A stretch of DNA of 50,864 nucleotides, from the IMG/VR virus record IMGVR_UViG_2695420685_000015; one strand, written 5' to 3'. Of the stretch, positions 4,989 to 43,393 are shown one piece after another (position 1 is the stretch's first letter; each line of letters begins with the position of its first letter). The notes beneath the pieces were generated by a model. It ran no database searches, was not told the origin of the DNA, and worked only from the letters and a program-made list of their open reading frames with translations. The DNA comes from a virus. Lineage: Duplodnaviria; Heunggongvirae; Uroviricota; Caudoviricetes. A program made the position numbers and the translations under genes.

Positions 4989-5630
4989 ATGTCTAGTATT
5001 TCCGAAGCTCATATGTTCGCCGCTGGCGCTCATGGTGGCGTTGGTCAGAAAAGAAAATATACCGGCGAAGACTACATCAACCACCCGGTTGCTGTCCGAG
5101 AGATTGTTGCATTGCATGACGGAACCGTGGAGATGCAAATCGCGGCGCTTCTGCATGATGTGGTCGAAGACACCCATGTAACCATAGAGATGGTTCGTGA
5201 TCACTTCGGTGAGCGCGTAGCTGAAATGGTTCAGGCTCTGACCAACATTGCAAGGCCAGAAGACGGCAATCGAATACAGCGTTTCATCATCAATGTCCGG
5301 GAGCTGGAGCAAAATCTCGACATGCAGACGCGCATGATCAAGCTGGCTGACCTGCTCGACAATACCTCTTCTATCGTGAGTCGCGATCCCGAGTTTTCAG
5401 CTGTCTACCTCGCAGAGAAAGAACTGATGCTGGACGTACTCTTTCACGGCAAAGAGATTGGTGCCAACGCTGATGTTGTCGAGTACATGGAGAGGATAGG
5501 AATAGAACACCCGTTGCTATTAAGCGCAATGGCGAAAGTCACTGAAGGTATTGCGCTTCTGAAACCGGTACACATCAAACGTTATGAAAAACACAAATCG
5601 CTGATCTGGAGCGCGTGGGAGGCTGCATGA
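4989..5630 (+). CDS. HD-domain (p)ppGpp hydrolase-like protein (small alarmone hydrolase, SpoT/Mesh1 family)
   Basis: YINHPVAVREIVAL...AALLHDVVEDT matches the RelA/SpoT hydrolase HD signature; 213 aa, no synthetase domain. Confidence 0.8.
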   Translation: MSSISEAHMFAAGAHGGVGQKRKYTGEDYINHPVAVREIVALHDGTVEMQIAALLHDVVEDTHVTIEMVRDHFGERVAEMVQALTNIARPEDGNRIQRFIINVRELEQNLDMQTRMIKLADLLDNTSSIVSRDPEFSAVYLAEKELMLDVLFHGKEIGANADVVEYMERIGIEHPLLLSAMAKVTEGIALLKPVHIKRYEKHKSLIWSAWEAA

Positions 5631-6169
5631 AGGTCGAAAAAATAGATGTTCTTTCCTTTGTGCTGACGGATCTGGAACGCCTCGATCCGGTTCGAGTAAT
5701 GATTGAAAACTACGAACCTGGTAAGGGAAGAATCACCATCATCTGCTACGGAAAAGCGTGGACTGCGGCTTGGTTTGCTATGGGCGGTGATGATGTGCAG
5801 ACGTTCATTAAGCGGGTCAGCAACGAGTATCTAATCGGCTATTTCGACTCTCAACTGCGAAGCACGGTCGACGATGACAACGATGCAAATCTGCTTTTCG
5901 TGAAGTCAGAAATCATAAAGTTACGAAGAGAGAGAGAAATCGACGCCGTACTGGCTCGTGAAATGTGGGACGAGGCGGAAAACGCCGATGACGTAAAAGA
6001 AAGCTGCTGTTGTTTCGGCGTCGGTAACAAACTGCTGAATCTCTTTGGTGATGATCCGTGGTATGCCGACTGGCCAACGGTACCAAACCCGAAATACCAG
6101 TATCTGGAACGCATTGTGAACGCGGTACGTGAAGGGCTGAAAGAGTTAGATAAGTTAGAGGCATCGTAA
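5627..6169 (+). CDS. hypothetical protein
   Basis: ATG overlapping upstream TGA with GGGAGG RBS; track start 5615 is GTG. Confidence 0.55.
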   Translation: MKVEKIDVLSFVLTDLERLDPVRVMIENYEPGKGRITIICYGKAWTAAWFAMGGDDVQTFIKRVSNEYLIGYFDSQLRSTVDDDNDANLLFVKSEIIKLRREREIDAVLAREMWDEAENADDVKESCCCFGVGNKLLNLFGDDPWYADWPTVPNPKYQYLERIVNAVREGLKELDKLEAS

Positions 6170-6669
6170 TGAGAGAGAAAATCAAGAACCCGGTCGTCGT
6201 ATTGTATAAACGGGAAACCAGCGATTCTTATGCGGTATCCATCACTGATGGAAGCCAGAACATGCACGATGGTCTGCTAATGGCCTCCGTATCTCCTGAT
6301 GATTCTGACTACCCTTTCGCCACTTTCGCTATGGTTGGTTACTACATGGCTGCCGAAATTGAGAAGTTGCGAGCGCAGAGAGACGCATTAGCGGCGGAGA
6401 ATGCAGCCCTGAAAGAATCTGAGCGAGCATTCGATGCGATGTGTGCCGAGGAACACGGAGATAATTGGGTTAGCGAATTAACGGAGACTCCAGCCACCGA
6501 TGCTTTTCTGGCTGAAGTACGTGCGCAGGGCGTGGATATGGCTCGTAACGCGATGATTGATTTTGTTGATGGTGAAGTTGGGCCAAACAAGAACGTTCCG
6601 GGGCTGATTAGAGGCGCAGAGATATGCGTAAGTATTGCTGAACAGCTTCGTAAAGGAGTCATCCAGTGA
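6169..6669 (+). CDS. hypothetical protein
   Basis: ATG overlaps upstream TAA; 166 aa. Confidence 0.55.
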   Translation: MREKIKNPVVVLYKRETSDSYAVSITDGSQNMHDGLLMASVSPDDSDYPFATFAMVGYYMAAEIEKLRAQRDALAAENAALKESERAFDAMCAEEHGDNWVSELTETPATDAFLAEVRAQGVDMARNAMIDFVDGEVGPNKNVPGLIRGAEICVSIAEQLRKGVIQ

Positions 6670-7067
6670 GCAAGATTGACTATCAGGCACTGCGTGAGGC
6701 GGCAGAGCGTGCAATTCCGGCAATGGAACGCCTGTTAATGTTGCCAGTTGATGATGATCTGATAAGCGAACAGGAACTTAAAGATAGCGGTGTTGATATT
6801 GATGCCCTCAACGCCTTCAAATTTCTGGCCGGACCAGAAACCGTGCTGGCACTACTGGATGAGATCAACGCATTAGAGGAAACGCGTATCAACGATGTTT
6901 GCCGTATTGCGGAACTAACAAAACAACTGGAGTTGGCAAAATCAAAACTCAACGAGCAGCGTGAGTATTACGAGGGCGTTATCTCGGATGGAAGTAAGCG
7001 CATAGCCGCTCTTCTTCGCAAGGACAATCTTGCCAGCGCCACGAACATTGAAGGTGAAAGAAAATGA
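6666..7067 (+). CDS. hypothetical coiled-coil protein
   Basis: GTG start with AAGGAG RBS 7 nt upstream; 133 aa. Confidence 0.5.
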
Positions 7068-7912
7068 CCACATCGCACTCTGCTATTACCCAAGAAAAAG
7101 CCTTCAACATACTCGAACGACTAGAGACGCTCGCTACGGAGGAGGAGATATCCCCGGAGAAACTGGTTGAGTTCAGCCGTGTGATATTGCGTCGCAAGAA
7201 CGATATGGAGCGGCTGACATCTGGCGCTCCATCCTTATCAGTCAGGCGAACACTTTGTTGCAGCTTCTGCAACAAATCCCAGTACGCCGTCAAAAAGTTA
7301 ATTGCTGGGGACGCCGTTTTCATCTGCGACGAGTGTGGATGTGTGCAACAGAATTATCCGGGGAGAGAAAGAGGGATCAGCATGAAATTATCCAAATTTT
7401 CTGAGTTGGTGAATCGTATTTTGTCCAACAACCACAGCCATCGTCGCGATATGGATGTAACGATCGTTGTTCATTCGCCTGGTCGCATCGGTTCAACACC
7501 ATCAGTTGAGGTTCAGTCAATTAAGGCGGGTTTTGATTGGGATGCCGGGCAAGTGATGATTTTTCCATCACAGCCACTGACCACGCTAACACCAGAGCAG
7601 GTTGCTGATATCACTGATAGTGTGCGCAAAGGTCAGTCTTGGCACGCGTATCAGGAATACAAGAAGCATAAAGAGCAGTTGGAAAAATTGTCGATGGAGT
7701 TGGAAGCCGCTAAACAGCGGGAAAAAGATCTGTTTATGGAAAATGTTCGACTTAAGTCAGGTATAGCCGGTCTGATACACCTCGGTATTCGATATGCGGA
7801 TGTTGAGGTCATGAAAATTGCTGGAGATGCCCAGCTTTCTACTCCATGCACTGACAGCATCATAAACAGCATTGCAGCAGGCATTTTCACCAAAGAGGGG
7901 GCAGCACGATGA
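7064..7912 (+). CDS. ClpX-type C4 zinc-finger domain protein (ClpX N-terminal zinc-binding-domain homolog fused to unknown C-terminal region)
   Basis: [31 protein letters not shown] closely matches ClpX N-domain [29 protein letters not shown]; no AAA+ module in this 282-aa protein. Confidence 0.65.
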
Positions 7913-8094
7913 GAACACTAGAGGTTCGCGCTGAAGACGTAATCCCTGGTGATGTGCTCATAACATCTAAAGGTCAACAATGTGCGGTTAAATCTTTTTG
8001 GATGGAAAATGACAAAGTGACTCTGTTCGGTACGGATGGTTCCGAAACTGATTATGACTACGACGAATTGCTTGTTGTTGAGAGAGCTGCCTAA
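7909..8094 (+). CDS. hypothetical small protein
   Basis: ATG overlaps upstream TGA; 61 aa. Confidence 0.45.
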
Positions 8095-8747
8095 TGACCA
8101 CCGTTAACAATAAGAAATGCTACCCAAGCGAGAAATATCTTAATGAGCTGATCACCAACATTGAGTTTGCTGCAAGGGCACCAGTTGAAGTCGTGAGAGC
8201 GATTGCAGCAGAGCTACAGAAGCACCGTAAGGCCTATGCCAATACAGCCGCATCTAAGGATGGTTGGATAAGCTGTAGTGAGCGAATGCCTGTAATTGGC
8301 GAGCTAAATTGGAGAACTAGTTTTCCTTTACTGGTTACGTGTGAGATCGGCGTTATACCTGCTTATTACGGCTTTGTGAGCGTTAATGGTAATAGGCATT
8401 ATGGCTTTATGGAGAGTCTTAAATACGGAGACGATAACGGCAACCATCCTCAAACTAATGAATATGGTCTGATTAGCAATGTCACACACTGGATGCCACT
8501 ACCAGAACGCCGCAGGAGTCGAACAGTGAATAATGCAGAGTTATTTCAGAAAATATCGGCTCTCGCGACTGAATGCCACGCTATAGCATCTGAGCTTGAT
8601 GTTGGCGATGAACGAACCGAGATGTTCGAAATATACAGTGTGCTGCGCAATCTCTGTCGGCGTGGCTACGCCACTCAAGTAGGGCGAATGACTAACCCAC
8701 TACTCTCATCCTGTGATGAGGATGACTCGGATGAGGATGACGAATGA
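8094..8747 (+). CDS. DUF551-like phage protein with poly-acidic C-terminal tail
   Basis: DGWISCSERMP resembles the DUF551 W-I-S-x-x-x-R-x-P core; C-terminus SCDEDDSDEDDE. Confidence 0.45.
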   Translation: MTTVNNKKCYPSEKYLNELITNIEFAARAPVEVVRAIAAELQKHRKAYANTAASKDGWISCSERMPVIGELNWRTSFPLLVTCEIGVIPAYYGFVSVNGNRHYGFMESLKYGDDNGNHPQTNEYGLISNVTHWMPLPERRRSRTVNNAELFQKISALATECHAIASELDVGDERTEMFEIYSVLRNLCRRGYATQVGRMTNPLLSSCDEDDSDEDDE

Positions 8748-9415
8748 TGCATAAATCAGTAGCCGGTGAGTTTCAGAAGGAAGTCGATAATACTACCGTT
8801 CTATTGGACGATATTTTAAGCATTCTCGCGCTTCTTGAGGCTGGCGATTGGTCAGAACATTGCACTAAAACGGAGTTAGGCGGTCGGCTTGAAAGAGAGA
8901 TTACACGACTTATTGGTGATGCGCAGGAAGCTACAGTCACTAGTTATGAGTTAATCGCTGAAGCCTGGCGTTTGATGGATGGACAAGATCCTAAAACCAG
9001 CGATTGGCATAGCAAGGCTTCGAAGTATTTAAATTCCGATAGGGTAGAAAAAGTTGATGATGTGAAACCGAAGCCAGTAGATCACGGTTTCCGCGATAAC
9101 TGCGAATGCTCTAGTTGCCAGACCACGGCCCGTATTTGTTCCGAATTGACAGATAAGTCCAGCCTAATCTACGAAGTTAATGTAGGCGGTAATACATGGG
9201 TCGAATGCACAAGAGCTGCATACGTAAGAGCAAAAGACAAGGGTGAATTAACCAGAGTTGTTGCCCATCACCCAAATAATGAGCTTAAAGATCACCAGAT
9301 TAGAGAACTGGTGAATGAGTTGCGGGATATTGCGGTTCAGTACCACGGAACGCAGCAATTGCGGGAGAAAATTGCCAGAGCAGTGAACAACTCAATTAGA
9401 TCAGAAAGTATGTAG
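8744..9415 (+). CDS. hypothetical protein
   Basis: ATG overlapping upstream stop; 223 aa. Confidence 0.55.
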   Translation: MMHKSVAGEFQKEVDNTTVLLDDILSILALLEAGDWSEHCTKTELGGRLEREITRLIGDAQEATVTSYELIAEAWRLMDGQDPKTSDWHSKASKYLNSDRVEKVDDVKPKPVDHGFRDNCECSSCQTTARICSELTDKSSLIYEVNVGGNTWVECTRAAYVRAKDKGELTRVVAHHPNNELKDHQIRELVNELRDIAVQYHGTQQLREKIARAVNNSIRSESM

Positions 9416-9517
9416 TCAATACAATAAAATGGCCCCATTTGGATGGGGCCGGTAACAACTAGCATTATGGGCGCTGGTTGACGTACTCAATGATCGCTTC
9501 GATGATTGCGAACATAG

Positions 9518-9825
9518 GCGGCACGATTTTGAAAAGTAAGTTAAGCACTATAGGCCTCACTTAGTTTTATCGCACCTAGCTGCAAATACCTTTGAGCTTG
9601 CCTTTGCAGTTGCAATATCTGTAGTCGCCAGATACTTACGGCACGATTTCGAGTTAAGGTAAGGTTTTAGAGTCACCAAAAACCTGGACTTAAATCTTCT
9701 TTGAGAACAACGATGTTTGGTAAATGGTCATTATTACCTAGCATGACGGCTCAACGTTTCTTGATGAATCCAGTACATTCGGTTAATCTTAGCTCAGTCG
9801 CCAGATACTTATGGCTCAGGAACAG
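9518..9825. repeat. intergenic direct repeats (CGCCAGATACTTAyGG and CGGCACGATTTyGAr)
   Basis: cggcacgattttgaaaag at 9519 and cggcacgatttcgag at 9639; gtcgccagatacttacgg at 9623 and gtcgccagatacttatgg at 9797. Confidence 0.5.
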
Positions 9826-10211: not shown

Positions 10212-10601
10212 ATGGGCTTCCCTTCTCCTGCGGCGGATTATGCTGAGAGCCGTATTTCTCTTGATCAGCAGATAATTAGACATCCTTCAGCGACCTACTT
10301 CATGAGGGCGGCTGATAGTCATCATCGTGAGGGAATATTGCAGGGTGCATTGCTGGTGGTCGATTCCTCACTGACTCCTGTTGATGGATCTCTTCTTGTA
10401 TGTGCTCTGGATGGGGAATATCGCGTAAAAAGATACCGGAAGTATCCACGTCAGCATCTGGAGGATTTAAGAACTGGTAAGAAGGAAGCATTGCCAAAGG
10501 ATGATGATGGATGCACGGGCAGCAATGCCGTGTTTGGTGTGATCACTCACATTATCAACGACGCAAGAAGTGGCGAGTTTGATGATTGTCCTGTGATGTA
10601 G
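10212..10601 (+). CDS. UmuD-prime-like (pre-cleaved UmuD / HumD-like) S24-family protein
   Basis: Starts MGFPSPAADY, corresponding to the UmuD-prime N-terminus after the Cys24-Gly25 cleavage site; HPSATYF and DS/K catalytic positions retained; C-terminus divergent; no umuC partner. Confidence 0.75.
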   Translation: MGFPSPAADYAESRISLDQQIIRHPSATYFMRAADSHHREGILQGALLVVDSSLTPVDGSLLVCALDGEYRVKRYRKYPRQHLEDLRTGKKEALPKDDDGCTGSNAVFGVITHIINDARSGEFDDCPVM

Positions 10602-10612
10602 GAGAACTGTTT

Positions 10613-10639
10613 AGGTGGTGCATTGCACCACCTTTTTAT
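10613..10639. terminator. bidirectional terminator between UmuD-prime-like gene and apbC
   Basis: aggtggtgcattgcaccacct hairpin then ttttta. Confidence 0.65.
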
Positions 10640-11739
10640 CACACTGCGCGGAATGCGATTTCGCCAGGTATTACTTCACCTTGCCAATACATTTGGGCAG
10701 CAACGCGATCTGCGAGGTCACGATAAATAGCCGTAAATTCGCTATCTGGACGACTAATAACGGTTGGTGTTCCGTTATCCAGATCTTCACGAAGAGAGAT
10801 ATGAAGTGGCATTTGGCCTAACAACTGCGTGTTGTATTTCTCGGCCAGTTTCTGTGCGCCACCGGTGCCAAAAATTGGCTCGTGATGACCGCAGTTACTG
10901 CAAATATGCACACTCATGTTTTCGACGATACCTAGTACCGGCACTTCGACTTTTTCGAACATCACAATGCCTTTCTTCGCATCGATCAGCGCGATGTCTT
11001 GCGGCGTAGTTACCACAACCGCACCAGTTACAGGAATGTTCTGCGCCAGCGTCAACTGAATATCACCAGTGCCCGGCGGCATATCGAGAACGAGATAGTC
11101 CAGATCAGGCCATAGAGTTTCCTGCAACATCTGCATCAGCGCCTTGCTGGCCATCGGTCCACGCCACACCATTGCATTGTCGTCGGTGACCAGATAACCA
11201 ATAGAGTTGGTTGCCAGGCCATGAGACATGATAGGTGCCATGTGAGTACCGTCAGGTGAGGTTGGACGTTGGTTTTCCGCGCCCAGCATGGTTGGAATTG
11301 ATGGACCATAGATATCGGCATCCAAAATACCAACTTTCGCACCTTCAGCAGCCAAAGCCAGTGCCAAGTTTACTGCTGTGGACGATTTGCCTACACCGCC
11401 CTTGCCTGAGCTTACGGCGATAATATTCTTAACACCATTAATGCCTGGTTGGTTTTTGACGCGCTTAAGCGTGGCAATGTTGTACGACAGCTTCCAGTCA
11501 ATAGCCTTTGCGCCAGTGATACGGAGCAGATCACCACTACATTGCTCTTTCAGGTCTTCAAAAGGCTTATTCCACACGAAAGGCATGATTAGTTCGACAT
11601 GCAGTGTGTCATCCATCAACGCAACATGGTGTAACGCTTTAAGCGTAGTCAGGTTGTGTTTCAGGGTTGGGTGCTGAAAATTAGCCAGCGTACCGGCTAC
11701 CATTGCTCTCAGGGCATCCGGCGATTTGGACTCGCTCAT
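10639..11739 (-). CDS. apbC: iron-sulfur cluster carrier ATPase ApbC/Mrp
   Basis: 366 aa; deviant Walker A SSGKGGVGKSSTAVNLA, C-terminal CSNCGH motif; AAGGAGA RBS; from memory near-identical to E. coli Mrp. Confidence 0.95.
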   Translation of the reverse strand: MSESKSPDALRAMVAGTLANFQHPTLKHNLTTLKALHHVALMDDTLHVELIMPFVWNKPFEDLKEQCSGDLLRITGAKAIDWKLSYNIATLKRVKNQPGINGVKNIIAVSSGKGGVGKSSTAVNLALALAAEGAKVGILDADIYGPSIPTMLGAENQRPTSPDGTHMAPIMSHGLATNSIGYLVTDDNAMVWRGPMASKALMQMLQETLWPDLDYLVLDMPPGTGDIQLTLAQNIPVTGAVVVTTPQDIALIDAKKGIVMFEKVEVPVLGIVENMSVHICSNCGHHEPIFGTGGAQKLAEKYNTQLLGQMPLHISLREDLDNGTPTVISRPDSEFTAIYRDLADRVAAQMYWQGEVIPGEIAFRAV

Positions 11740-11896
11740 CCCGTCTCCTTTATTTTAATTTGCGCAATTGTCGCCTTGTAGTGTACTCCAGCTGCGACAT
11801 TTAATCATTTATGAGAAATGCTGTTATCACATGGCAGACATAAGGCCATTTTGTTACTATCAAGCCCCTTTTCACTACAAAGAAGTAATGCCTACT

Positions 11897-13930
11897 ATGA
11901 CCCAAGTCGCGAAGAAAATTCTGGTGACGTGCGCGCTGCCGTACGCTAACGGCTCAATCCACCTCGGCCATATGCTGGAGCACATCCAGGCTGATGTCTG
12001 GGTTCGTTACCAGCGAATGCGCGGCCACGAGGTTAATTTCATCTGTGCCGACGATGCCCACGGTACGCCGATCATGCTGAAAGCACAGCAACTTGGTATC
12101 ACACCGGAGCAGATGATTGGCGAAATGAGTCAGGAACACCAGACTGATTTCGCAGGCTTTAACATCAGCTATGACAACTATCACTCGACGCACAGCGAAG
12201 AGAACCGTCAGTTGTCTGAGCTTATCTATACTCGCCTGAAAGAGAACGGTTTTATTAAAAATCGCACTATCTCTCAGTTGTACGACCCGGAAAAAGGCAT
12301 GTTCCTGCCGGATCGTTTTGTGAAAGGCACCTGCCCGAAATGTAAAGCGCCAGATCAATACGGCGATAACTGTGAAGTTTGCGGCGCGACCTACAGCCCG
12401 ACTGAACTGATCGAGCCGAAATCGGTGGTTTCTGGTGCTACCCCGGTAATGCGTGATTCTGAACACTTCTTCTTTGATCTGCCCTCTTTCAGCGAAATGT
12501 TGCAGGCATGGACCCGCAGCGGTGCGTTGCAGGAGCAGGTGGCAAACAAAATGCAGGAGTGGTTTGAATCTGGTCTGCAACAGTGGGATATCTCCCGCGA
12601 CGCACCTTACTTCGGTTTTGAAATTCCGAACGCGCCGGGTAAATATTTCTACGTCTGGCTGGACGCACCGATTGGCTACATGGGTTCCTTCAAGAATCTG
12701 TGCGACAAGCGCGGCGACACTACCAGCTTCGATGAATACTGGAAGAAAGACTCCACCGCCGAGCTGTACCACTTCATCGGTAAAGATATCGTTTACTTCC
12801 ACAGCCTGTTCTGGCCTGCCATGCTGGAAGGCAGCAACTTCCGCAAGCCGACCAACCTGTTTGTTCACGGCTATGTGACGGTGAACGGCGCGAAGATGTC
12901 CAAGTCTCGCGGCACCTTTATTAAAGCCAGCACCTGGTTGAATCATTTTGACGCTGACAGCCTGCGTTACTACTACACTGCGAAACTCTCTTCGCGCATT
13001 GATGATATCGATCTCAACCTGGAGGATTTCGTTCAGCGTGTGAATGCCGATATCGTGAACAAAGTGGTTAACCTGGCGTCCCGTAACGCTGGCTTTATCA
13101 ATAAGCGTTTTGACGGTGTGCTGGCAAGCGAGCTGGCTGACCCGCAGTTGTACAAAACCTTCACTGATGCCGCTGAAGTGATTGGTGAAGCGTGGGAAAG
13201 CCGCGAATTTGGTAAAGCTATCCGTGAAATCATGGCACTGGCTGACCTGGCTAACCGCTATGTCGACGAGCAGGCTCCTTGGGTAGTCGCAAAACAGGAA
13301 GGTCGCGATGCTGACCTGCAGGCGATTTGCTCAATGGGCATCAACCTGTTCCGCGTGCTGATGACTTACCTGAAACCGGTACTGCCGAAACTGACAGAAC
13401 GTGCGGAAGCATTCCTGAATACGGAACTGACCTGGGATGGCATCCAGCAACCGCTGCTGGGCCATAAAGTGAATCCGTTCAAAGCACTGTATAACCGTAT
13501 CGACATGAAACAGGTGGAAGCATTGGTGGAAGCGTCTAAAGAAGAAGTGAAAGCTACTGCCGCGCCAGTTACTGGCCCGCTGGCAGACGACCCGATTCAG
13601 GAAACCATCACCTTTGACGACTTTGCCAAAGTTGACCTGCGCGTGGCACTGATCGAAAACGCAGAGTTTGTTGAAGGTTCTGACAAACTGCTGCGCCTGA
13701 CGCTGGATCTCGGCGGTGAAAAACGCAATGTCTTCTCAGGCATCCGTTCTGCTTATCCAGACCCACAGGCACTGATTGGTCGTCACACCATTATGGTGGC
13801 TAACCTGGCTCCGCGTAAGATGCGCTTCGGCATCTCCGAAGGTATGGTGATGGCTGCTGGCCCCGGCGGGAAAGATATCTTCCTGTTAAGCCCGGATGCT
13901 GGTGCTAAACCTGGCCACCAGGTTAAGTAA
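11897..13930 (+). CDS. metG: methionyl-tRNA synthetase
   Basis: 677 aa from ATG 11897 (track start 11768 is an upstream extension); [15 protein letters not shown] motif, KMSKS motif, CPKC...CEVC zinc knuckles, C-terminal tRNA-binding domain; from memory ~99% identical to E. coli MetG. Confidence 0.97.
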
Positions 13931-15884: not shown

Positions 15885-16640
15885 GTTTATACCAATAATA
15901 AAACAACTAAATAACAGATCAACGAAACGTCAACGCTTTCACCCGATTTGGTCTAAAAAATTGACGTATTCACACATCACTTCTTATACCCGTAATTCTA
16001 CGCAGCAGACAGCGCCACAGCGTCCAATTTTCACCACAGACGACCCAACACACTACCAACAAAAACACACGCTCAAAATCACTCCCATTGCGTTACATAA
16101 CTATATAAACAACTTATTTTCAGCTATAACAAAACAACTAAATAACACACATGCCATTCCCCAAAACAACCAACCTCTTTATGGCAGGCTACCGAAAAGA
16201 CCCACCTCTTCTCCCCAGGCTACCGGACAGCCAACCTAACTTTCACAGGCAATCCGAAAACATTCATACGCGCGATACCCACGACACGCCATTCCCCAAA
16301 CAGCGAAGAAACACCAGAATCACTGAAAACCCAACGAAGCCTGTAACCGCAAGGATTCTCTCAATCCCAAAAGACACGAAACATAACAATCACGGGAAAC
16401 GCCATTACCCAATACACGAATAACTACAAAAGCCCTTCACACACTCCAGACAAACAACTCAAACACAATAACGAAAGGATTCGCCCACCTGCCATTACTC
16501 CATACATGGAGAAGAACAATCACCAAAACGACGAGAACACCCCATAGAAGAACCACCGCAAAACGAACGAAACCACATACACCGACAGAGAAAACAACAC
16601 ACCCAATTCACCAACAGAAATAGTCGCCGTATAGAACATT
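15885..16640 (+). other. A+C-rich strand-asymmetric ORF-free tract (candidate noncoding RNA or structural DNA element)
   Basis: About 75-80% A+C on the + strand over ~760 bp in sampled 60-nt blocks; no ATG-initiated ORF; internal short repeats (aaaacaactaaataaca twice, ccattccccaaa twice). Confidence 0.6.
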
Positions 16641-16736
16641 CTGGAAGGAGTGAGCATTAACGCCTATAGAGAGGTTGAGACAGATAAAACACAACATGCA
16701 TAGCGAAGAAGCCAGGTATGTATAAGTGGGGAGGGA

Positions 16737-16759
16737 AGGAGGGGTGTCGCCTCCTTTTT
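16737..16759 (+). terminator. rho-independent terminator downstream of A+C-rich tract
   Basis: aggaggggtgtcgcctcct hairpin followed by tttt. Confidence 0.55.
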
Positions 16760-16822
16760 CGTATTTATTCAACTCCTGATTTTATCCCCCGTAACACCCC
16801 TACGGTCAGCCTTCGGTCCATA

Positions 16823-16960
16823 CAGGGAAAAGGCTGCATCCCGCTACAGAAACGGCTGGGTTGCCTTCGGGGAACGGCTGGAGGTTTTCAGGGAAACGGT
16901 CGAGTTGCCTGTGTGGATTTCGGGAGAAGGCTCGATGCCGGTTCAGGAACGGTGGCGTAC
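16823..16960. repeat. iteron-like direct repeat cluster (core GGAAACGGC)
   Basis: cagggaaaaggctgcatccc, cagaaacggctggg, gggaacggctgga, gggaaacggtcgag, gggagaaggctcga, caggaacggtggcg at about 21-30 bp spacing. Confidence 0.6.
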
Positions 16961-17257
16961 CGGTATAGCGAGAGGGAGAGTTGCGGCTACCCACCTGTAA
17001 TGTGCGGGAAGAAGAGAGGCGCTCACGTAGGCGGACTTGCTTACCGCTGGATTCCCTCTGAATGCCCAGCTACAGCGTAATTGTGCCAGACAGCCAACGG
17101 GTCACAATCGATTTCAGTAGGTTTTCGGGGAGAGGATTATTCTGCCCACCAGCCACTAAATCAGAATAATGTAAAAAGTGTACTCGGTACTGAACCTGAA
17201 AACTCACTACCAAAACCACATTCACCGGAATAAAATCCTTTTTCGCCTGTGCGTTAT

Positions 17258-19856: not shown

Positions 19857-20304
19857 TATGTAGAAAAAACATCGGGAAGCTGGTGGAATCCAACCAGCGG
19901 TTGTCGGACAGGTGAGCGGGGAAAATTATGATGACTTTCGTCGCCTGAGACATCCAGATTTCTTTCGTAGCATAATCACATACGTGATTAAGTGGTGTGA
20001 TTATGTGAAAAATCACGCGCACATAATACGCGAGCGGATACGGAACAAAACAAAATGCCGATCCGCGCCGACAAATAAACGCGGATCATAAAGCAAGACT
20101 AAAAGCCAATGATTAACCATACTCTATAGCGCAATATAACGCGTTTTAAGCGCGTTAATGTGTTAAGTAATGGGTATGTACTGGTAAGGATATAAAAGCG
20201 CGTCTATGGCGTTATTTTGGCGCTTATTTTTATGTTGTTGGAGTGAGTTAAAGACAATAAAAAACGCGCTAATGATGGCGCGTTATGGTGGGAGTATTGG
20301 AAAC

Positions 20305-20335
20305 GAAAAAAGCGCCCATAGTGGGCGCTCGATTT
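20305..20335 (-). terminator. terminator with conserved AGCGCCCA-yrT-GGGCGCT hairpin
   Basis: aaaaaagcgcccatagtgggcgctcgatttta; A/T runs on both sides; same stem sequence recurs at 20806-20824. Confidence 0.6.
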
Positions 20336-20565
20336 TATTTGTGTAAACTGATTTTAAATCCCATTTCTACAAACGCTTTTAACATTAAAAATATATCAGC
20401 GTCGTTCACGTCTGCTTTTTTTCGCTCCTGGTCGCTCAATAAGTCAATTTTGCGCGTCGTTTCATCTATAAGCTCGACTGCGCGCCCAGCGTAACCAGCG
20501 ATCCCAGCGATGCGATTAACATAATATTCATTATGGACGTTAACGCCAGCGATAAGAACAAACAT
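20335..20565 (-). CDS. hypothetical protein
   Basis: ATG with AAGGAG RBS; 76 aa; AT-rich local composition. Confidence 0.55.
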   Translation of the reverse strand: MFVLIAGVNVHNEYYVNRIAGIAGYAGRAVELIDETTRKIDLLSDQERKKADVNDADIFLMLKAFVEMGFKISLHK

Positions 20566-20584
20566 GATTAAGCTCCTTAAAAAA

Positions 20585-20788
20585 TTAAATAGAATTTTGA
20601 AGTTTTCCGATTAATGCGCTTAAACGTAAGTATTCACGTTTGCGCTTGCAATCTCGCTTGCTGTTAAGCAAATCAGAAAACGTAAAATTTAATTGGTCGC
20701 GTTGCGCGATCAAATCATCGATTAATTCCAGTTTATAAGCGCGATACTTTGCGCGATATTCCGCGCGGATCTTGTCATAGCTGACCAT
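20585..20788 (-). CDS. hypothetical small basic protein
   Basis: Start moved to second ATG (20788) with AAAGGAG RBS because the track N-terminus runs through the conserved hairpin; 67 aa. Confidence 0.5.
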   Translation of the reverse strand: MVSYDKIRAEYRAKYRAYKLELIDDLIAQRDQLNFTFSDLLNSKRDCKRKREYLRLSALIGKLQNSI

Positions 20789-20805
20789 CTTTAAAGCTCC
20801 TTTAA

Positions 20806-20824
20806 AGCGCCCACTATGGGCGCT
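20806..20824 (-). repeat. second copy of conserved hairpin AGCGCCCAyTrTGGGCGCT
   Basis: agcgcccactatgggcgct between genes 20837-21487 and 20585-20788. Confidence 0.5.
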
Positions 20825-20836
20825 TGATTCCATTTA

Positions 20837-21487
20837 TTACGCTTTGAAAGCATCAGCTAAATAATTGTAGAAATCATTTTTAATGAAGCGATATTGCTGA
20901 GTACCAGCTTTCGCGCTCCCAGCTCCTTTGACTTTTTCAACAAGTCCAAGACGTTCGCAAAGATTGATCAACTGGTTGGCTTGAGTATAGCCAGCGTCCA
21001 ATTTAATTTCACACGCTTTTTTAGCTTCATTCATTAAATCGAAAACAGCGCCATTGGTGAACGTGTCGATCTCGTCGTTAATCATATCGATTAAAGCGAA
21101 TACACGAGATCCTGACATATCAGCGATGGAATAAACGCATTTACCAGATTTAATTGATTTAACCAGATAAACCAGTTTTTCCAGAGAATAACTATTAGTC
21201 ATTGCATCACGGAAAAATACTTCTGGCGCTTGTTTGCTTGCTTTAATCGCATAGTAGAAAACAGAGCATAATTTTTCGTCTTCTACTGCGTTTACGACGT
21301 TGTTGATGAAGTAAGCAAGTTTAGTGGTCGCAGCTTGCATATTTGCTTTGTCTGCTTTAGTGTGCGTACCATTTTTATAATGTTCGTTATATGTTTGAGT
21401 TGCCAGATCTGCTTTTTCGCGCAGTTCATCGGATACAATGGAAGCAGCTTCAATGATGGATTTTTTAGAAATGATAATGTTAGCCAT
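20837..21487 (-). CDS. hypothetical protein, possible C-terminal winged-helix DNA-binding domain
   Basis: ATG with AAGGAAAAA RBS; 216 aa; C-terminal LINLCERLGLVEKVKGAGSAKAGTQQYRFIKN looks winged-helix-like (weak). Confidence 0.5.
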   Translation of the reverse strand: MANIIISKKSIIEAASIVSDELREKADLATQTYNEHYKNGTHTKADKANMQAATTKLAYFINNVVNAVEDEKLCSVFYYAIKASKQAPEVFFRDAMTNSYSLEKLVYLVKSIKSGKCVYSIADMSGSRVFALIDMINDEIDTFTNGAVFDLMNEAKKACEIKLDAGYTQANQLINLCERLGLVEKVKGAGSAKAGTQQYRFIKNDFYNYLADAFKA

Positions 21488-21734
21488 GATAATTTTTCCT
21501 TATGTAAATTTAAAATTTATTGTCGTTAGCGTCTTCGCTTTCGACGAGTTCAATTATCGATACGCGAAAAAAGATTGCAAGTGTTTTTTTTAAAATTTTT
21601 TGCAGGGATGAAAGTCCTAGAAATAAAAGCGAGATCGTCGAAGGTGTTCCCTAAATAAATAATCGATTGCGGCTTTAGACCTTATATATATTTAGGTTAT
21701 TTGATTTGTAGATATAAAGAAGTGATGTGAAAAA

Positions 21735-41800: not shown

Positions 41801-43393
41801 CAGAAGGCTCTGGATAAAGCCGATCAGCTTATGGGGCAAATGGGTGAAAGCTCTAAGGCTACGGTATCGTTTGATCAGTCTCTTCGCGATACAACGAAAT
41901 CGCTAACTGATTTGGCTAATGCGGTTCCTAACGAGTTCATCACTCAAGAGATGATCGACAAGGCGAAAAAACGTCTTGAAGACCTCAAAAATGCGACACC
42001 TGAATATCGCGAGATGTTTAATCGCCGCAATGTTGAGCAGATGATCTCCACTTGGGCACCGGAGGCGGATTCCATTATTAGTGCTGGCTATACGCCGTCT
42101 CGTGAAGAGAAAGTTGCTGATTTCGAAGACACCTACAACCGCAATCTCAAAGCGTTGATAGAACTTCGTGATAAGGCGTCTGATCCTAAAGTCGTGGCGC
42201 TTTATACAAAGAAAATCAATCAACTTATTGCTGCTGGCAATACCGCGCTTATTAAAGAGACGGGGACTGCGACGCAGAAGTTGGCACTGGAATACGAAAA
42301 CCTGGCAGAGCAGATTGAAAGCACCTGGACTGATTTGTTTAGTGGCTTAACTGATGTCCTGACTGATTTCGTTATTAACGGGAAGATGAGCTTCTCCAGC
42401 CTATCTCAGTCCATTTTGAAAGATATCACCAATATGGTCGTGAAGTCGCAAATCACGCTGCCTCTAATGAACATGTTGGGGATGGGAACCACCGCAGCTG
42501 GTAGTTCACAGAGTGGCAATTTGCTGACCGGGGTTGCTTCTGCCGTTGCCAATCAAGGTGTACGAATGGGCAACACTGTTAATGGCGACAAGTCGGTAGG
42601 AGAAGCCACGAAGGAGACGTCCAGTTCGGTAACTGGATTGGGGCAAACAACACAGCAGACCACCAGCGCAATTGGCACAGCAACAAATGCGATTGGTAGC
42701 TGGGTATCGGGGCTATTTGATAGCACCGAAGCCAAAGATGCTGAGACAAAAGCAGTGAAGGACTCCATCTTCTCGATGCAGAATCTCAGCTCTGTTACCG
42801 GCGCTCTGTCAGCCGCGTTTGCAATGCTTGGAGCTAATGCTTCCGGCTCTGGTAATAAGTGGTTGAATTTCGGCGCGACAGTTGCATCTGGTTTGGTTTC
42901 AGTATGGGCTGGTGGTGGATTCGATGGATTGATGTCCGGTTCTTCTGGCTCAACTTCCGGCTTCAACAATCTGACCAGTTCTGCTGCCGATGGCACGAAT
43001 GGTATTCCTGCAATTCCGAAGTTTGCAAATGGTGGCATATTTGGAAAAGACGGCGTGATCCCGCTCCGGGCATACCAGAAAGGCGGTATCGCCAACTCAC
43101 CTCAATTGGCGTTGTTTGGGGAAGGCGATATGAATGAGGCGTATGTTCCATTGCCTGATGGTCGAACAATCCCTGTAACGCTCAGTACCGATGGTATGAG
43201 TGGAGGAGGAAATGTTCTTTCTCCGGTATCAATTGAGATCAACGTCCATAGTGACGGTAGCACAACTGAATCCGGCGATACAGAAAGCATATGGAACAAT
43301 GCCGCTCAACGGATGAAAGCAATCGCGCTTGAGACTATCGCTCAAGAGAAACGCCCTGGCGGATCACTCAACCCAAACACTCAACGTAACTAA
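38825..43393 (+). CDS. tail tape measure protein
   Basis: 1522 aa from ATG 38825 (track start 38804 is TTG); long coiled-coil regions, Gly-rich hydrophobic segment, C-terminal Ser/Gly-rich region. Confidence 0.85.
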   Translation: MSQNVEFILSLEDKQFTASIDRAGKLLTRFGEQVTKPAQKIQTFERSLGSVARIIRVLESKLDSTADKLQDVAAGFELASDATRKMRGNITSLNSGLKALIERVDTTTSSVDKLTASLRKVQSELNDFSDWSTYASKSASRFGTEVKEASASVSGMNTRLNTTTKRLSNWGVTTSQAAEGLKKVREQMDEVIGRQQLISKPVRVRTSGSGDGGSGRRSGSGHSGKSNEGGMFSGLRGNIFLLGEIGDAARTVTDIMFGWQKPIVEAAAEMERMRVMLRGLNKEKSNPGQAAADDMKYIVDMAQNAPFAMQALTDSFVKFRSAGLDPTDGSLKALVDSVARFGGDSELLKRAAVAVQQMSGKGVVSMEELRQQLGEAVPNAMQAMADAAGITMGELTKAVASGTVEAKQALSLMFVGLRAENENAAKDMMQTYTGALAQLQTSFTLFADRVGQAGYLDSLSKGMKELASIMNSAEGISFANSLGSGLTTAIDGLRQLAQWLAKNQELVINLGKVVAAMVAFKLMRAGIMGVVGAGGQMVSTFATMATAIQTPFNLGATAVTRFNRAARMGLAPIPSLIFAIRGAITGLKGAFAGLTAFIAANPIGAAFTVATVAVAGLITYMTMLRSETSKVVDEIRKIPEAMTAAKRAQMADRAEKLEKQILADQRALKTGEGVNYVSNSAGVITHKESKADIEARLKKNQEEYQKITGTIALGDGAVAKRLAKEAAESQIEKIRAENQIFAATFVKARQEALDKIQKINDDGSLSDDEKNKLLAPLRETVNKSYLEPAQKLVDSLSSRKNATEKQIATLNDQLEKAKKDGNTEQIQKLQGSIRGYQEHLEAVAQELTQAEFERDNAAKTGKGVMSNQGTVLGLGTTDKAAQKALAQYMRNQMDSATYQRTLPDGTPMKDFEGKPIIGPKQLKTQLNLQKASSASSLEKMSDEERAAAIAALTKAREQDAAAAEKAAQRSANASQRAAKKEQAAQQKLAAGYQKALDKADQLMGQMGESSKATVSFDQSLRDTTKSLTDLANAVPNEFITQEMIDKAKKRLEDLKNATPEYREMFNRRNVEQMISTWAPEADSIISAGYTPSREEKVADFEDTYNRNLKALIELRDKASDPKVVALYTKKINQLIAAGNTALIKETGTATQKLALEYENLAEQIESTWTDLFSGLTDVLTDFVINGKMSFSSLSQSILKDITNMVVKSQITLPLMNMLGMGTTAAGSSQSGNLLTGVASAVANQGVRMGNTVNGDKSVGEATKETSSSVTGLGQTTQQTTSAIGTATNAIGSWVSGLFDSTEAKDAETKAVKDSIFSMQNLSSVTGALSAAFAMLGANASGSGNKWLNFGATVASGLVSVWAGGGFDGLMSGSSGSTSGFNNLTSSAADGTNGIPAIPKFANGGIFGKDGVIPLRAYQKGGIANSPQLALFGEGDMNEAYVPLPDGRTIPVTLSTDGMSGGGNVLSPVSIEINVHSDGSTTESGDTESIWNNAAQRMKAIALETIAQEKRPGGSLNPNTQRN

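Follow-up and report, generated by a model that had tools for sequence, protein, structure and literature searches.

A phage ORF which carries a ClpX-type zinc-binding domain (ZBD) on an otherwise unfamiliar protein raises the question of whether it encodes a new modulator of host ClpXP proteolysis, or whether its architecture has some simpler origin. The ORF lies in the window, a 50,864-nucleotide stretch of viral DNA (IMG/VR record IMGVR_UViG_2695420685_000015). The first-pass annotation described it as a ClpX C4 zinc finger at residues ~64–95 joined to ~190 aa of unrelated sequence ending in a coiled coil, with no ATPase module, and suggested that the product could heterodimerise with host ClpX N-domains or titrate adaptors. 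The reading frame itself is real, and is present unchanged in public assemblies:

7064–7912, + strand: fused ORF of 282 aa with an ATG start (ORF list; alignment with phage PhiR41_1; exact protein in public contigs).

The zinc finger is readily confirmed. The Pfam profile zf-C4_ClpX (PF06689) matches residues 65–91 with an E-value of 2e-10 and 40.8 bits, against a gathering cut-off of 27 bits, and phmmer aligns residues 62–92 to the E. coli ClpX ZBD in the PDB (2ds5, 2ds7, 1ovx; E ~1e-8). All four zinc cysteines, C66, C69, C88 and C91, are kept in the CxxC...CxxC arrangement and align with C14, C17, C36 and C39 of ClpX. The match to the ClpX finger is thus significant, but it is shorter than was first proposed: it stops at residue 91/92 and covers only profile positions 2–29 of 39, so that the fused ORF lacks a complete zf-C4_ClpX domain with the alpha-helix that follows the second CxxC. 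An intact relative covers positions 2–38 and scores 57.5 bits. The absence of an ATPase module is equally clear. The NCBIfam ClpX models (TIGR00382, NF003745) score 28 bits against cut-offs of 359–371, reaching only model positions 4–35 (NF003745) and 8–57 (TIGR00382), and the Pfam search returned no AAA match. Judged by these profiles, the fused ORF is therefore not a ClpX but a ClpX-type ZBD without the ATPase module. Two other searches were negative: Pfam gave no Ead/Ea22-like PF13935 match in the fused ORF at E-values up to 1, and the PADLOC defence models gave just pAgo (E 0.0074), with no matched stretch above threshold.

The PHROG families divide the ORF. Residues 1–92 belong to phrog_6797, residues 107–220 to phrog_6026 and the C-terminus to Ea22-like families; this split was the earliest hint of an ORF spanning more than one gene. 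Met107 is the exact residue at which the phrog_6026 match sets in, at profile position 1. The phrog_6797 profile has 107 positions, of which an intact member of the family (P0001) covers 1–106 and the fused ORF 1–92, and the fused ORF thus has no end-to-end match finishing at the ATGA overlap which closes the intact gene. In Escherichia phage PhiR41_1, the same DNA is annotated as two coding sequences, of 107 and 176 aa, which share that ATGA. The window and PhiR41_1 have 99% mean column identity by pairwise alignment (97.8% by megablast), and the alignment contains one gap only, at which the window reads GACGAGTGTGGATG and the relative GACGAGTGTGTGGATG. The ancestral pair and its junction can be laid out on the window as follows:

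7064–7336, + strand: ancestral 107-aa ZBD gene, the part still in its own frame, aa 1–91, with the helical hairpin, a linker, and the zinc knuckles and beta-hairpin at aa 64–91 (phrog_6797 over aa 1–92; zf-C4_ClpX over 65–91; AF2 model of the intact homologue; Foldseek).
7334–7337, + strand: slip site, (TG)2 in the window and (TG)3 in relatives (pairwise alignment; indel list against plasmid pAVS0225-A; motif census of loci).
7337–7381, + strand: old 3' end of the ZBD gene, 15 codons in the wrong frame, with the conserved C-terminal helix gone (translations; family alignment).
7370–7384, + strand: Shine–Dalgarno-like AGAGGG (7370–7375) and ATG (7382–7384), the start of the ancestral 176-aa gene (sequence read; the ATG starts an annotated coding sequence in relatives; phrog_6026 at M107).
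7382–7912, + strand: ancestral 176-aa gene (PHROG matches; mosaic DNA matches; AF2 model).

The missing TG falls between positions 7336 and 7337, right where the codon for C91, the last of the four zinc cysteines, ends. Because of this 2-bp deletion the ORF bypasses the stop codon of the ZBD gene: 15 out-of-frame residues replace 16 native residues and the stop, and the next gene is then entered at its own ATG (7382), the former stop/start overlap of the two genes being 7382–7385. The tail is therefore a neighbouring gene reached by read-through, and the picture of ~190 aa of unrelated sequence recruited to a zinc finger does not hold. In the wild-type arrangement the frame of the downstream gene has no stop for 71 codons ahead of its ATG. 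A long fused ORF would consequently follow from any -2 or +1 slip within the final ~213 nt of the ZBD gene, and no special coincidence is needed. The AGAGGG sits 6 nt upstream of the ATG at 7382 and both are retained in the window, so the 176-aa protein is probably still translatable separately.

The distribution of the two arrangements indicates which of them is ancestral. Records covering at least 80% of the locus comprise 43 plasmids (PLSDB), 3 phages and 67 complete E. coli genomes. Among the near matches listed (up to 40 from plasmids and 60 from E. coli), the locus measures 851 nt in each full-length case, against 849 nt in the window; the exception is plasmid pPSUO78_2, with 850 nt, and yet it keeps (TG)3. 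The two-gene annotation is found in the 100+ close relatives listed and the fused form in none of these, PGAP naming the pair 'ClpX C4-type zinc finger protein' and 'hypothetical protein'. The ZBD gene is also a separate coding sequence, of 106–110 aa, in the P1-like phage D6 and the P2-like phage P88, with other genes downstream of it. Furthermore, mosaic DNA matches in other phages cover ORF nucleotides 1–304, 301–656 and 649–832. Their boundaries coincide with the gene junction, from which it follows that the two halves are independent recombination modules. On these comparisons the fusion is a derived frameshift allele and not a designed domain fusion.

It might be objected that the deletion is an error of sequencing or assembly, and that the true genome has two genes. 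The site does lie in a short dinucleotide repeat, and the window shows only a handful of differences from its nearest wild-type relative, with 7 substitutions and the 2-bp gap over 8.85 kb against plasmid pAVS0225-A. The indel list against that plasmid, however, contains no other obvious in-gene frameshift, and the exact 282-aa protein is among the gene calls of at least 12 contigs drawn from independent runs and projects (carrier sources ERR4785098, ERR1937572, ERZ27230492, SRR19671072, SRR29007555 and SRR27876785) and has two NCBI protein accessions. A pattern scan of IMG/VR found (TG)2 in 2 of 17 contigs, one of which (L020) matches the window at 100% identity across 12 kb, and (TG)3 in the other 15. 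An identical deletion in independent contigs from public runs and IMG/VR is not a one-off sequencing error, and this explanation is scarcely credible.

A second alternative is that the (TG)n run is a programmed switch, by phase variation or programmed frameshifting, between two proteins and their fusion. The change is indeed one unit of a dinucleotide repeat, and ORF fusions occur at neighbouring junctions of the same gene array. Three repeat units are, however, too few for high-frequency slippage, and (TG)3 is found not only in the 15 IMG/VR contigs but in each listed RefSeq, PLSDB and phage record checked. All carriers have a common haplotype around the site, from which one of them (L010) departs only on the downstream side, beyond window position 8154; this indicates a single origin and later recombination, not recurrent switching. 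A programmed switch is thus highly improbable. Sequencing error and phase variation were both rejected as explanations.

The deletion allele is recent, by its closeness to wild-type pAVS0225-A, and by its shared haplotype of single origin, with later recombination. It is also rare: an abundance count gave 8 contigs for the fused form against 900 to >1000 contigs for each individual intact 107-aa sequence. In one carrier (L023) an extra 1-nt deletion at ORF nucleotide 26 cuts the ATG-initiated product to 19 aa. This second frameshift is consistent with ongoing decay, although it falls in a CCC homopolymer and may be a sequencing error. The allele has nevertheless been sampled in several independent isolates and has recombined downstream; it is therefore not strongly deleterious, which counts against reading it as a loss of function.

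What the deletion does to the ZBD can be judged from the conservation of the segment it removes. CDECV-x-x-C-N-x-x-I is kept in 19 of 19 family members and in E. coli ClpX, the residues after CDEC following the pattern V-[DEK]-x-C-N-x-x-I-[RQ]-E in the same 19 members and in ClpX. In an alignment of 51 sequences C95 is invariant and I99 nearly so. Residues 92–99 of the fused ORF are GCVQQNYP as against the conserved V-x-x-C-N-x-x-I. F68 of the phage protein is equivalent to F16 of ClpX, and I98/I99 to I46/I47; the window allele keeps F68, has Y98 and P99 in place of the two isoleucines, and has G92 and Q95 for V92 and C95. In the ClpX N-domain homodimer the hydrophobic core is formed by the C-terminal helices and beta-hairpins (PMC5890618). 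According to PMC7804408, the lambda-O site of ClpX overlaps a hydrophobic region to which F16 and I46 belong and to which SspB, RssB and trigger factor (TF) bind; the residue-level binding map used here is that of later papers citing the original mapping work.

We infer that the fused product keeps the N-terminal helical hairpin, both CxxC knuckles and the beta-hairpin, and that it loses the amphipathic C-terminal helix. The zinc knuckles may still bind metal, while the domain as a whole is most likely misfolded or unable to dimerise. Since the lost helix contributes part of the dimer core and the I46 position of the adaptor and substrate patch, ZBD function is probably lost in the window allele. 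Some features speak for residual function: neither the beta-hairpin nor any of the four zinc ligands is lost, and the long helix of the tail could in principle provide for dimerisation.

These features are also what the proposal of a working fusion would have to draw upon, in which the 282-aa protein would use its ZBD and coiled coil to heterodimerise with ClpX N-domains or titrate adaptors, and so modulate ClpXP. The zf-C4_ClpX match is significant, with four cysteines present, the long, confidently predicted helix of the tail could supply oligomerisation, the allele occurs in several isolates, and free ZBD has been found to inhibit RssB-mediated sigma-S turnover in vitro (PMC7226468). Against this, the protein is the product of a 2-bp slip, absent from the 100+ close relatives listed and far rarer than the intact form, one of its carriers (L023) shows further decay, and the helix bearing dimer-core residues and I46 has been exchanged for an out-of-frame peptide containing Gly and Pro. 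The loss of that helix makes heterodimerisation or adaptor titration unlikely for the fused protein, and a functional fusion is accordingly an improbable reading of the locus as a whole. The suggestion of ClpXP modulation retains its sense for the intact 107-aa parent.

The explanation which best accommodates the locus, and in which we place considerable confidence, is that a 2-bp deletion fused a 107-aa ZBD gene to a 176-aa gene, with the ZBD most likely inactivated and the intact parent plausibly mimicking the N-domain of ClpX. Two adjacent, translationally coupled accessory genes were joined when (TG)3 lost one TG, and the fused allele would be a loss-of-function form of the ZBD gene, an early pseudogene. 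The intact parent could titrate adaptors and substrates which dock on the ZBD, or pair with ClpX N-domains, during phage-plasmid development. Rather than a ClpXP modulator of a new kind, the fused ORF is therefore most likely a damaged allele of a small phage protein which has been catalogued but little studied.

The 176-aa half and the surrounding genes have the character of mosaic accessory DNA. The 176-aa protein begins with a module of the phrog_6026/phrog_368 type, continues with a long helix and ends in a mosaic module resembling Ea22/EaD (nt ~7712–7895); no Pfam or NCBIfam match was found in this part. Its N-terminal ~115 residues recur before many different C-termini, including DUF551 and Ead_Ea22, and the DNA of the last ~60 residues of the ORF (~180 nt) is 93–97% identical to the 3' ends of Ea22/EaD-annotated genes in many phages. 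The AF2 model has a mean pLDDT of 57 and is confident only in helix 87–146, corresponding to fused residues ~193–252 (nt ~7640–7819). The coiled coil noted at first thus has a counterpart in a confident long helix, but a further predicted helix of low confidence follows, so that the long helix does not strictly form the C-terminus. When the fused protein was aligned jointly with the two parent families, the 107-aa family was misaligned onto the coiled coil, and this alignment was not used for modelling. The neighbouring genes on the + strand form an array of short genes with overlapping or abutting stops and starts:

4989–5630, + strand: HD-domain protein.
5615–6169, + strand: Phage_phiTE_072-like protein (ORF list; the start lies at 5627 in relatives).
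6169–6669, + strand: 166-aa ORF.
6666–7067, + strand: Ead/Ea22-like protein of 133 aa, its stop overlapping the start of the fused ORF by ATGA (Pfam PF13935, E 1.3e-22; ORF list).
7909–8094, + strand: 61-aa ORF, phrog_15283, its start overlapping the stop of the fused ORF by ATGA (ORF list; PHROG).
8094–8747, + strand: DUF551 protein.
8744–9415, + strand: 223-aa ORF.

Beyond the 223-aa ORF lie genes for an S24 (UmuD-like) peptidase and an ApbC/Mrp-like ATPase, and metG. Two minus-strand ORFs, 6979–7323 and 7651–7893, had no PHROG match and were set aside as shadow ORFs. Other fusions by read-through arise in the same array, among them a 237-aa protein which joins the 176-aa gene to the next, 61-aa gene and is found on 38 and 24 contigs; such read-through fusions are hence recurrent mutational noise there. 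The whole window is 98–99% identical to plasmid pAVS0225-A, a 112-kb element with genes for tail, capsid, portal and terminase, and the closest phage records, CMS-2020a, PhiR41_1 and Cyrano, are of ~108 kb. Judged by these close matches, the window is part of an SSU5/pHCM2-type E. coli phage-plasmid.

The intact parent belongs to a well-populated family, the RefSeq 'ClpX C4-type zinc finger protein' or PHROG 6797, whose members have 102–121 aa and form ~26 clusters down to 66% identity. Many GenBank records mislabel them as 'carboxylate--amine ligase'. The family is confined to phage-plasmids and prophages of Escherichia, Shigella and Salmonella; its carriers include SSU5-like and P1-like phage-plasmids, the P2-like P88, and prophages of E. 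coli and Salmonella. By blastn of the ZBD-coding DNA, members are present in 220 of 5426 complete E. coli genomes (~4%). The same search of the 5426 genomes detected no DNA similarity to host clpX, and recent capture of clpX DNA was on this ground rejected as the origin of the gene. At the protein level the intact ZBD is ~68% identical to that of E. coli ClpX (28 of 41 residues), the helix and the positions corresponding to F16 and I46/I47 being included.

The AF2 model of the intact protein (mean pLDDT 72.5) comprises helices at 10–26 and 31–52, a disordered linker, and the ZBD at 64–99 with its helix at 89–99. The N-terminal helical hairpin (aa ~10–52) is conserved and specific to the family, and the fused ORF has both this hairpin and the ZBD by virtue of the identity of its residues 1–91 to P0001. 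The best PDB matches of the intact model in Foldseek were 2ds5, 2ds6, 2ds8 and 1ovx, over 38 columns (37 for 1ovx) at 71–73% identity and ~2.1 Å rmsd. The PADLOC models matched neither the intact 107-aa protein nor the 176-aa protein.

The most economical hypothesis for the intact 107-aa protein, and a reasonable candidate, is that it acts as a decoy for the ClpX N-domain or as a heterodimerising mimic of it. Free ClpX ZBD inhibits RssB-mediated sigma-S degradation by ClpXP in vitro (PMC7226468), and since the free domain blocks adaptor-mediated degradation, the decoy idea is a sensible one for this protein. A search of the literature found no study of phage-encoded stand-alone ClpX zinc fingers, or of ClpXP inhibitors of such a type. 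It may be, alternatively, that the protein is a generic treble-clef scaffold for protein binding, unrelated to ClpXP and serving, for example, in the inhibition of a transcription factor. CsfB provides the precedent, a small stand-alone treble-clef dimer nearest in structure to the ClpX N-domain which inhibits sigma factors (PMC5890618), and both the family-specific hairpin and the silence of the literature would fit such a role. CsfB, however, is only ~20% identical to ClpX and its surfaces differ (PMC5890618), whereas the phage family is ~68% identical to the E. coli ZBD over 41 residues, with F16, I46/I47 and the helix included, and its model superposes on all four ClpX structures named above at ~2.1 Å. 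A role of this kind is thus unlikely, though it deserves to be kept in mind. A bolder combination is a long shot: that the intact family would be the first phage or plasmid mimic of the ClpX N-domain, directed against SspB, RssB, UmuD-type adaptors and ZBD-dependent substrates, and that the fused allele would at the same time keep part of this activity, the tail helix replacing the dimerisation helix in a new, tethered form.

Two lessons may be drawn. For the fused ORF the lesson is chiefly one of correction: what looks like a fusion of domains is read-through caused by a mutation, and surveys of genomes should leave it out of any tally of new architectures. More interest attaches to the parent gene, which encodes a small protein copying the docking domain of ClpX at ~68% identity. 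If the decoy hypothesis is true, the parent would be a simple natural tool for the selective block of adaptor-dependent ClpXP proteolysis, and would give mobile elements a new means of shielding unstable proteins of their own; the naturally truncated allele would then be a ready-made negative control.

A number of parallels can be drawn with known systems. The closest is the N-terminal ZBD of E. coli ClpX itself (1OVX, 2DS5–2DS8), which is the same CxxC...CxxC treble-clef domain and of which the window protein shares the first 31 of the 41 aligned residues. The phage proteins differ from ClpX in having no AAA+ module and in the family-specific helical hairpin which precedes the ZBD, and the window allele has out-of-frame sequence in place of helix V40–R48, including I46/I47. 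With the PHROG 6797 family the fused ORF shares its position in the array, after the Ead/Ea22-like gene, and over residues 1–91 it is identical to members (90% across the full alignment). The members, however, end 16 residues past the last cysteine at the ATGA overlap, whereas the window allele continues for 191 residues more.

The mosaic Ead/Ea22-like proteins of lambdoid and P1-like phages are encoded in the same type of array, made up of short ATGA-coupled genes which exchange modules, although the Pfam Ead_Ea22 model matches the upstream neighbour and not the fused ORF. The anti-adaptors IraD, IraM and IraP act on RssB, and T4 PinA inhibits Lon. These form the functional class which the intact parent would join if the decoy idea is right, that of small proteins which redirect AAA+ proteolysis through competition for docking sites. 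They have no sequence or structural relationship to it, and in contrast they bind the adaptor or the protease directly and copy no protease domain.

CsfB (Gin), the anti-sigma factor of Bacillus subtilis, is likewise a small, stand-alone, dimeric treble-clef zinc finger, and its closest structure is the ClpX N-domain (PMC5890618). No sequence relationship between CsfB and the window protein was detected. CsfB is not a phage protein; its identity to ClpX is only ~20%, its surfaces differ, and its binding partners are sigma-G and sigma-E.

The array around the fused open reading frame, in which a 107-aa protein with a ClpX-type zinc-binding domain (ZBD) is joined to a 176-aa module, is one where module swaps and ORF fusions are recurrent. 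Two of its features concern the 176-aa module directly:

Window 7360-7385: junction GAGAAAGAGGGATCAGCATGA between the ZBD gene and the 176-aa module, comprising a Shine-Dalgarno sequence and an ATGA overlap.
Equivalent of window 7382-8094, in proteins P0017, P0018 and P0020 of relatives: a 237-aa fusion joined at the ATGA overlap of both its genes.

The same GAGAAAGAGGGATCAGCATGA precedes the 176-aa module in the locus of another relative's protein, P0095, but with a different gene upstream, and the junction looks like a conserved linker for module exchange. The 237-aa protein represents a second type of read-through fusion among the relatives, here between the 176-aa gene and the next, 61-aa gene, and was counted on 38 and 24 contigs. 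In a further relative the ZBD gene is deleted and an Ead_Ea22 N-terminus lies in frame with the 176-aa module (P0030, 249 aa).

One carrier of the (TG)2 allele, the fused form found in the window, has a second frameshift:

IMGVR_UViG_2648501466_000020, 8925-9772: locus L023, carrying the (TG)2 allele.

At nucleotide 26 of this ORF a CCC run has lost one more nucleotide, which shortens the ATG-initiated product to 19 aa; the cause is either pseudogenisation that has gone further or a sequencing error in the homopolymer.

Two names used in many GenBank records have no support from the sequence: 'carboxylate--amine ligase' for the 107-aa ZBD protein, and 'ATP-dependent protease ATP-binding subunit ClpX' for the fused 282-aa form.

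Elsewhere, variable stretches were defined by comparison with the wild-type plasmid pAVS0225-A. Window 16443-17170 and 20270-21700, mostly non-coding, show three kinds of difference from it. Units of 10-11 bp are deleted (GAAGAAAACAC at 16693, CTTCGGCCAC at 17157), dinucleotides have slipped (AC at 16443, AT at 21690), and inverted repeats contain compensated indels. The stretch may hold iterons and an origin, or regulatory repeats. The large tail-tip fibre gene contains a short, indel-rich and highly divergent patch (window 42940-42990), which may be a variable segment for host range.

Downstream of the fused ORF lie:

Window 10212-10601, same strand as the fused ORF and ~2.3 kb downstream: S24 (UmuD-like) peptidase, 129 aa.
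Within window 10639-13930, minus strand: ApbC/Mrp-like iron-sulfur carrier ATPase.
Region of relatives aligned to window 10639-13930: full-length methionyl-tRNA synthetase gene.

ClpXP substrates include UmuD and UmuD', whose docking site is the ClpX N-domain; that the S24 peptidase and the ZBD protein are functionally linked is conceivable, if purely speculative. The ATPase and synthetase are unusual housekeeping-type cargo, as are genes in other parts of the window that carry the annotations rnhA, tellurite/colicin-resistance-like and DUF4942 in relatives.

The family also extends to a P2-like phage:

L015, 3504-3836: ZBD-family homologue in phage P88, 50% identical.

This homologue has the helical hairpin as well as the ZBD, and its gene comes immediately after those for a replication endonuclease and a ParM-like partition pair. 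In three unrelated temperate phage types, therefore, replication/maintenance regions are what the family travels with.
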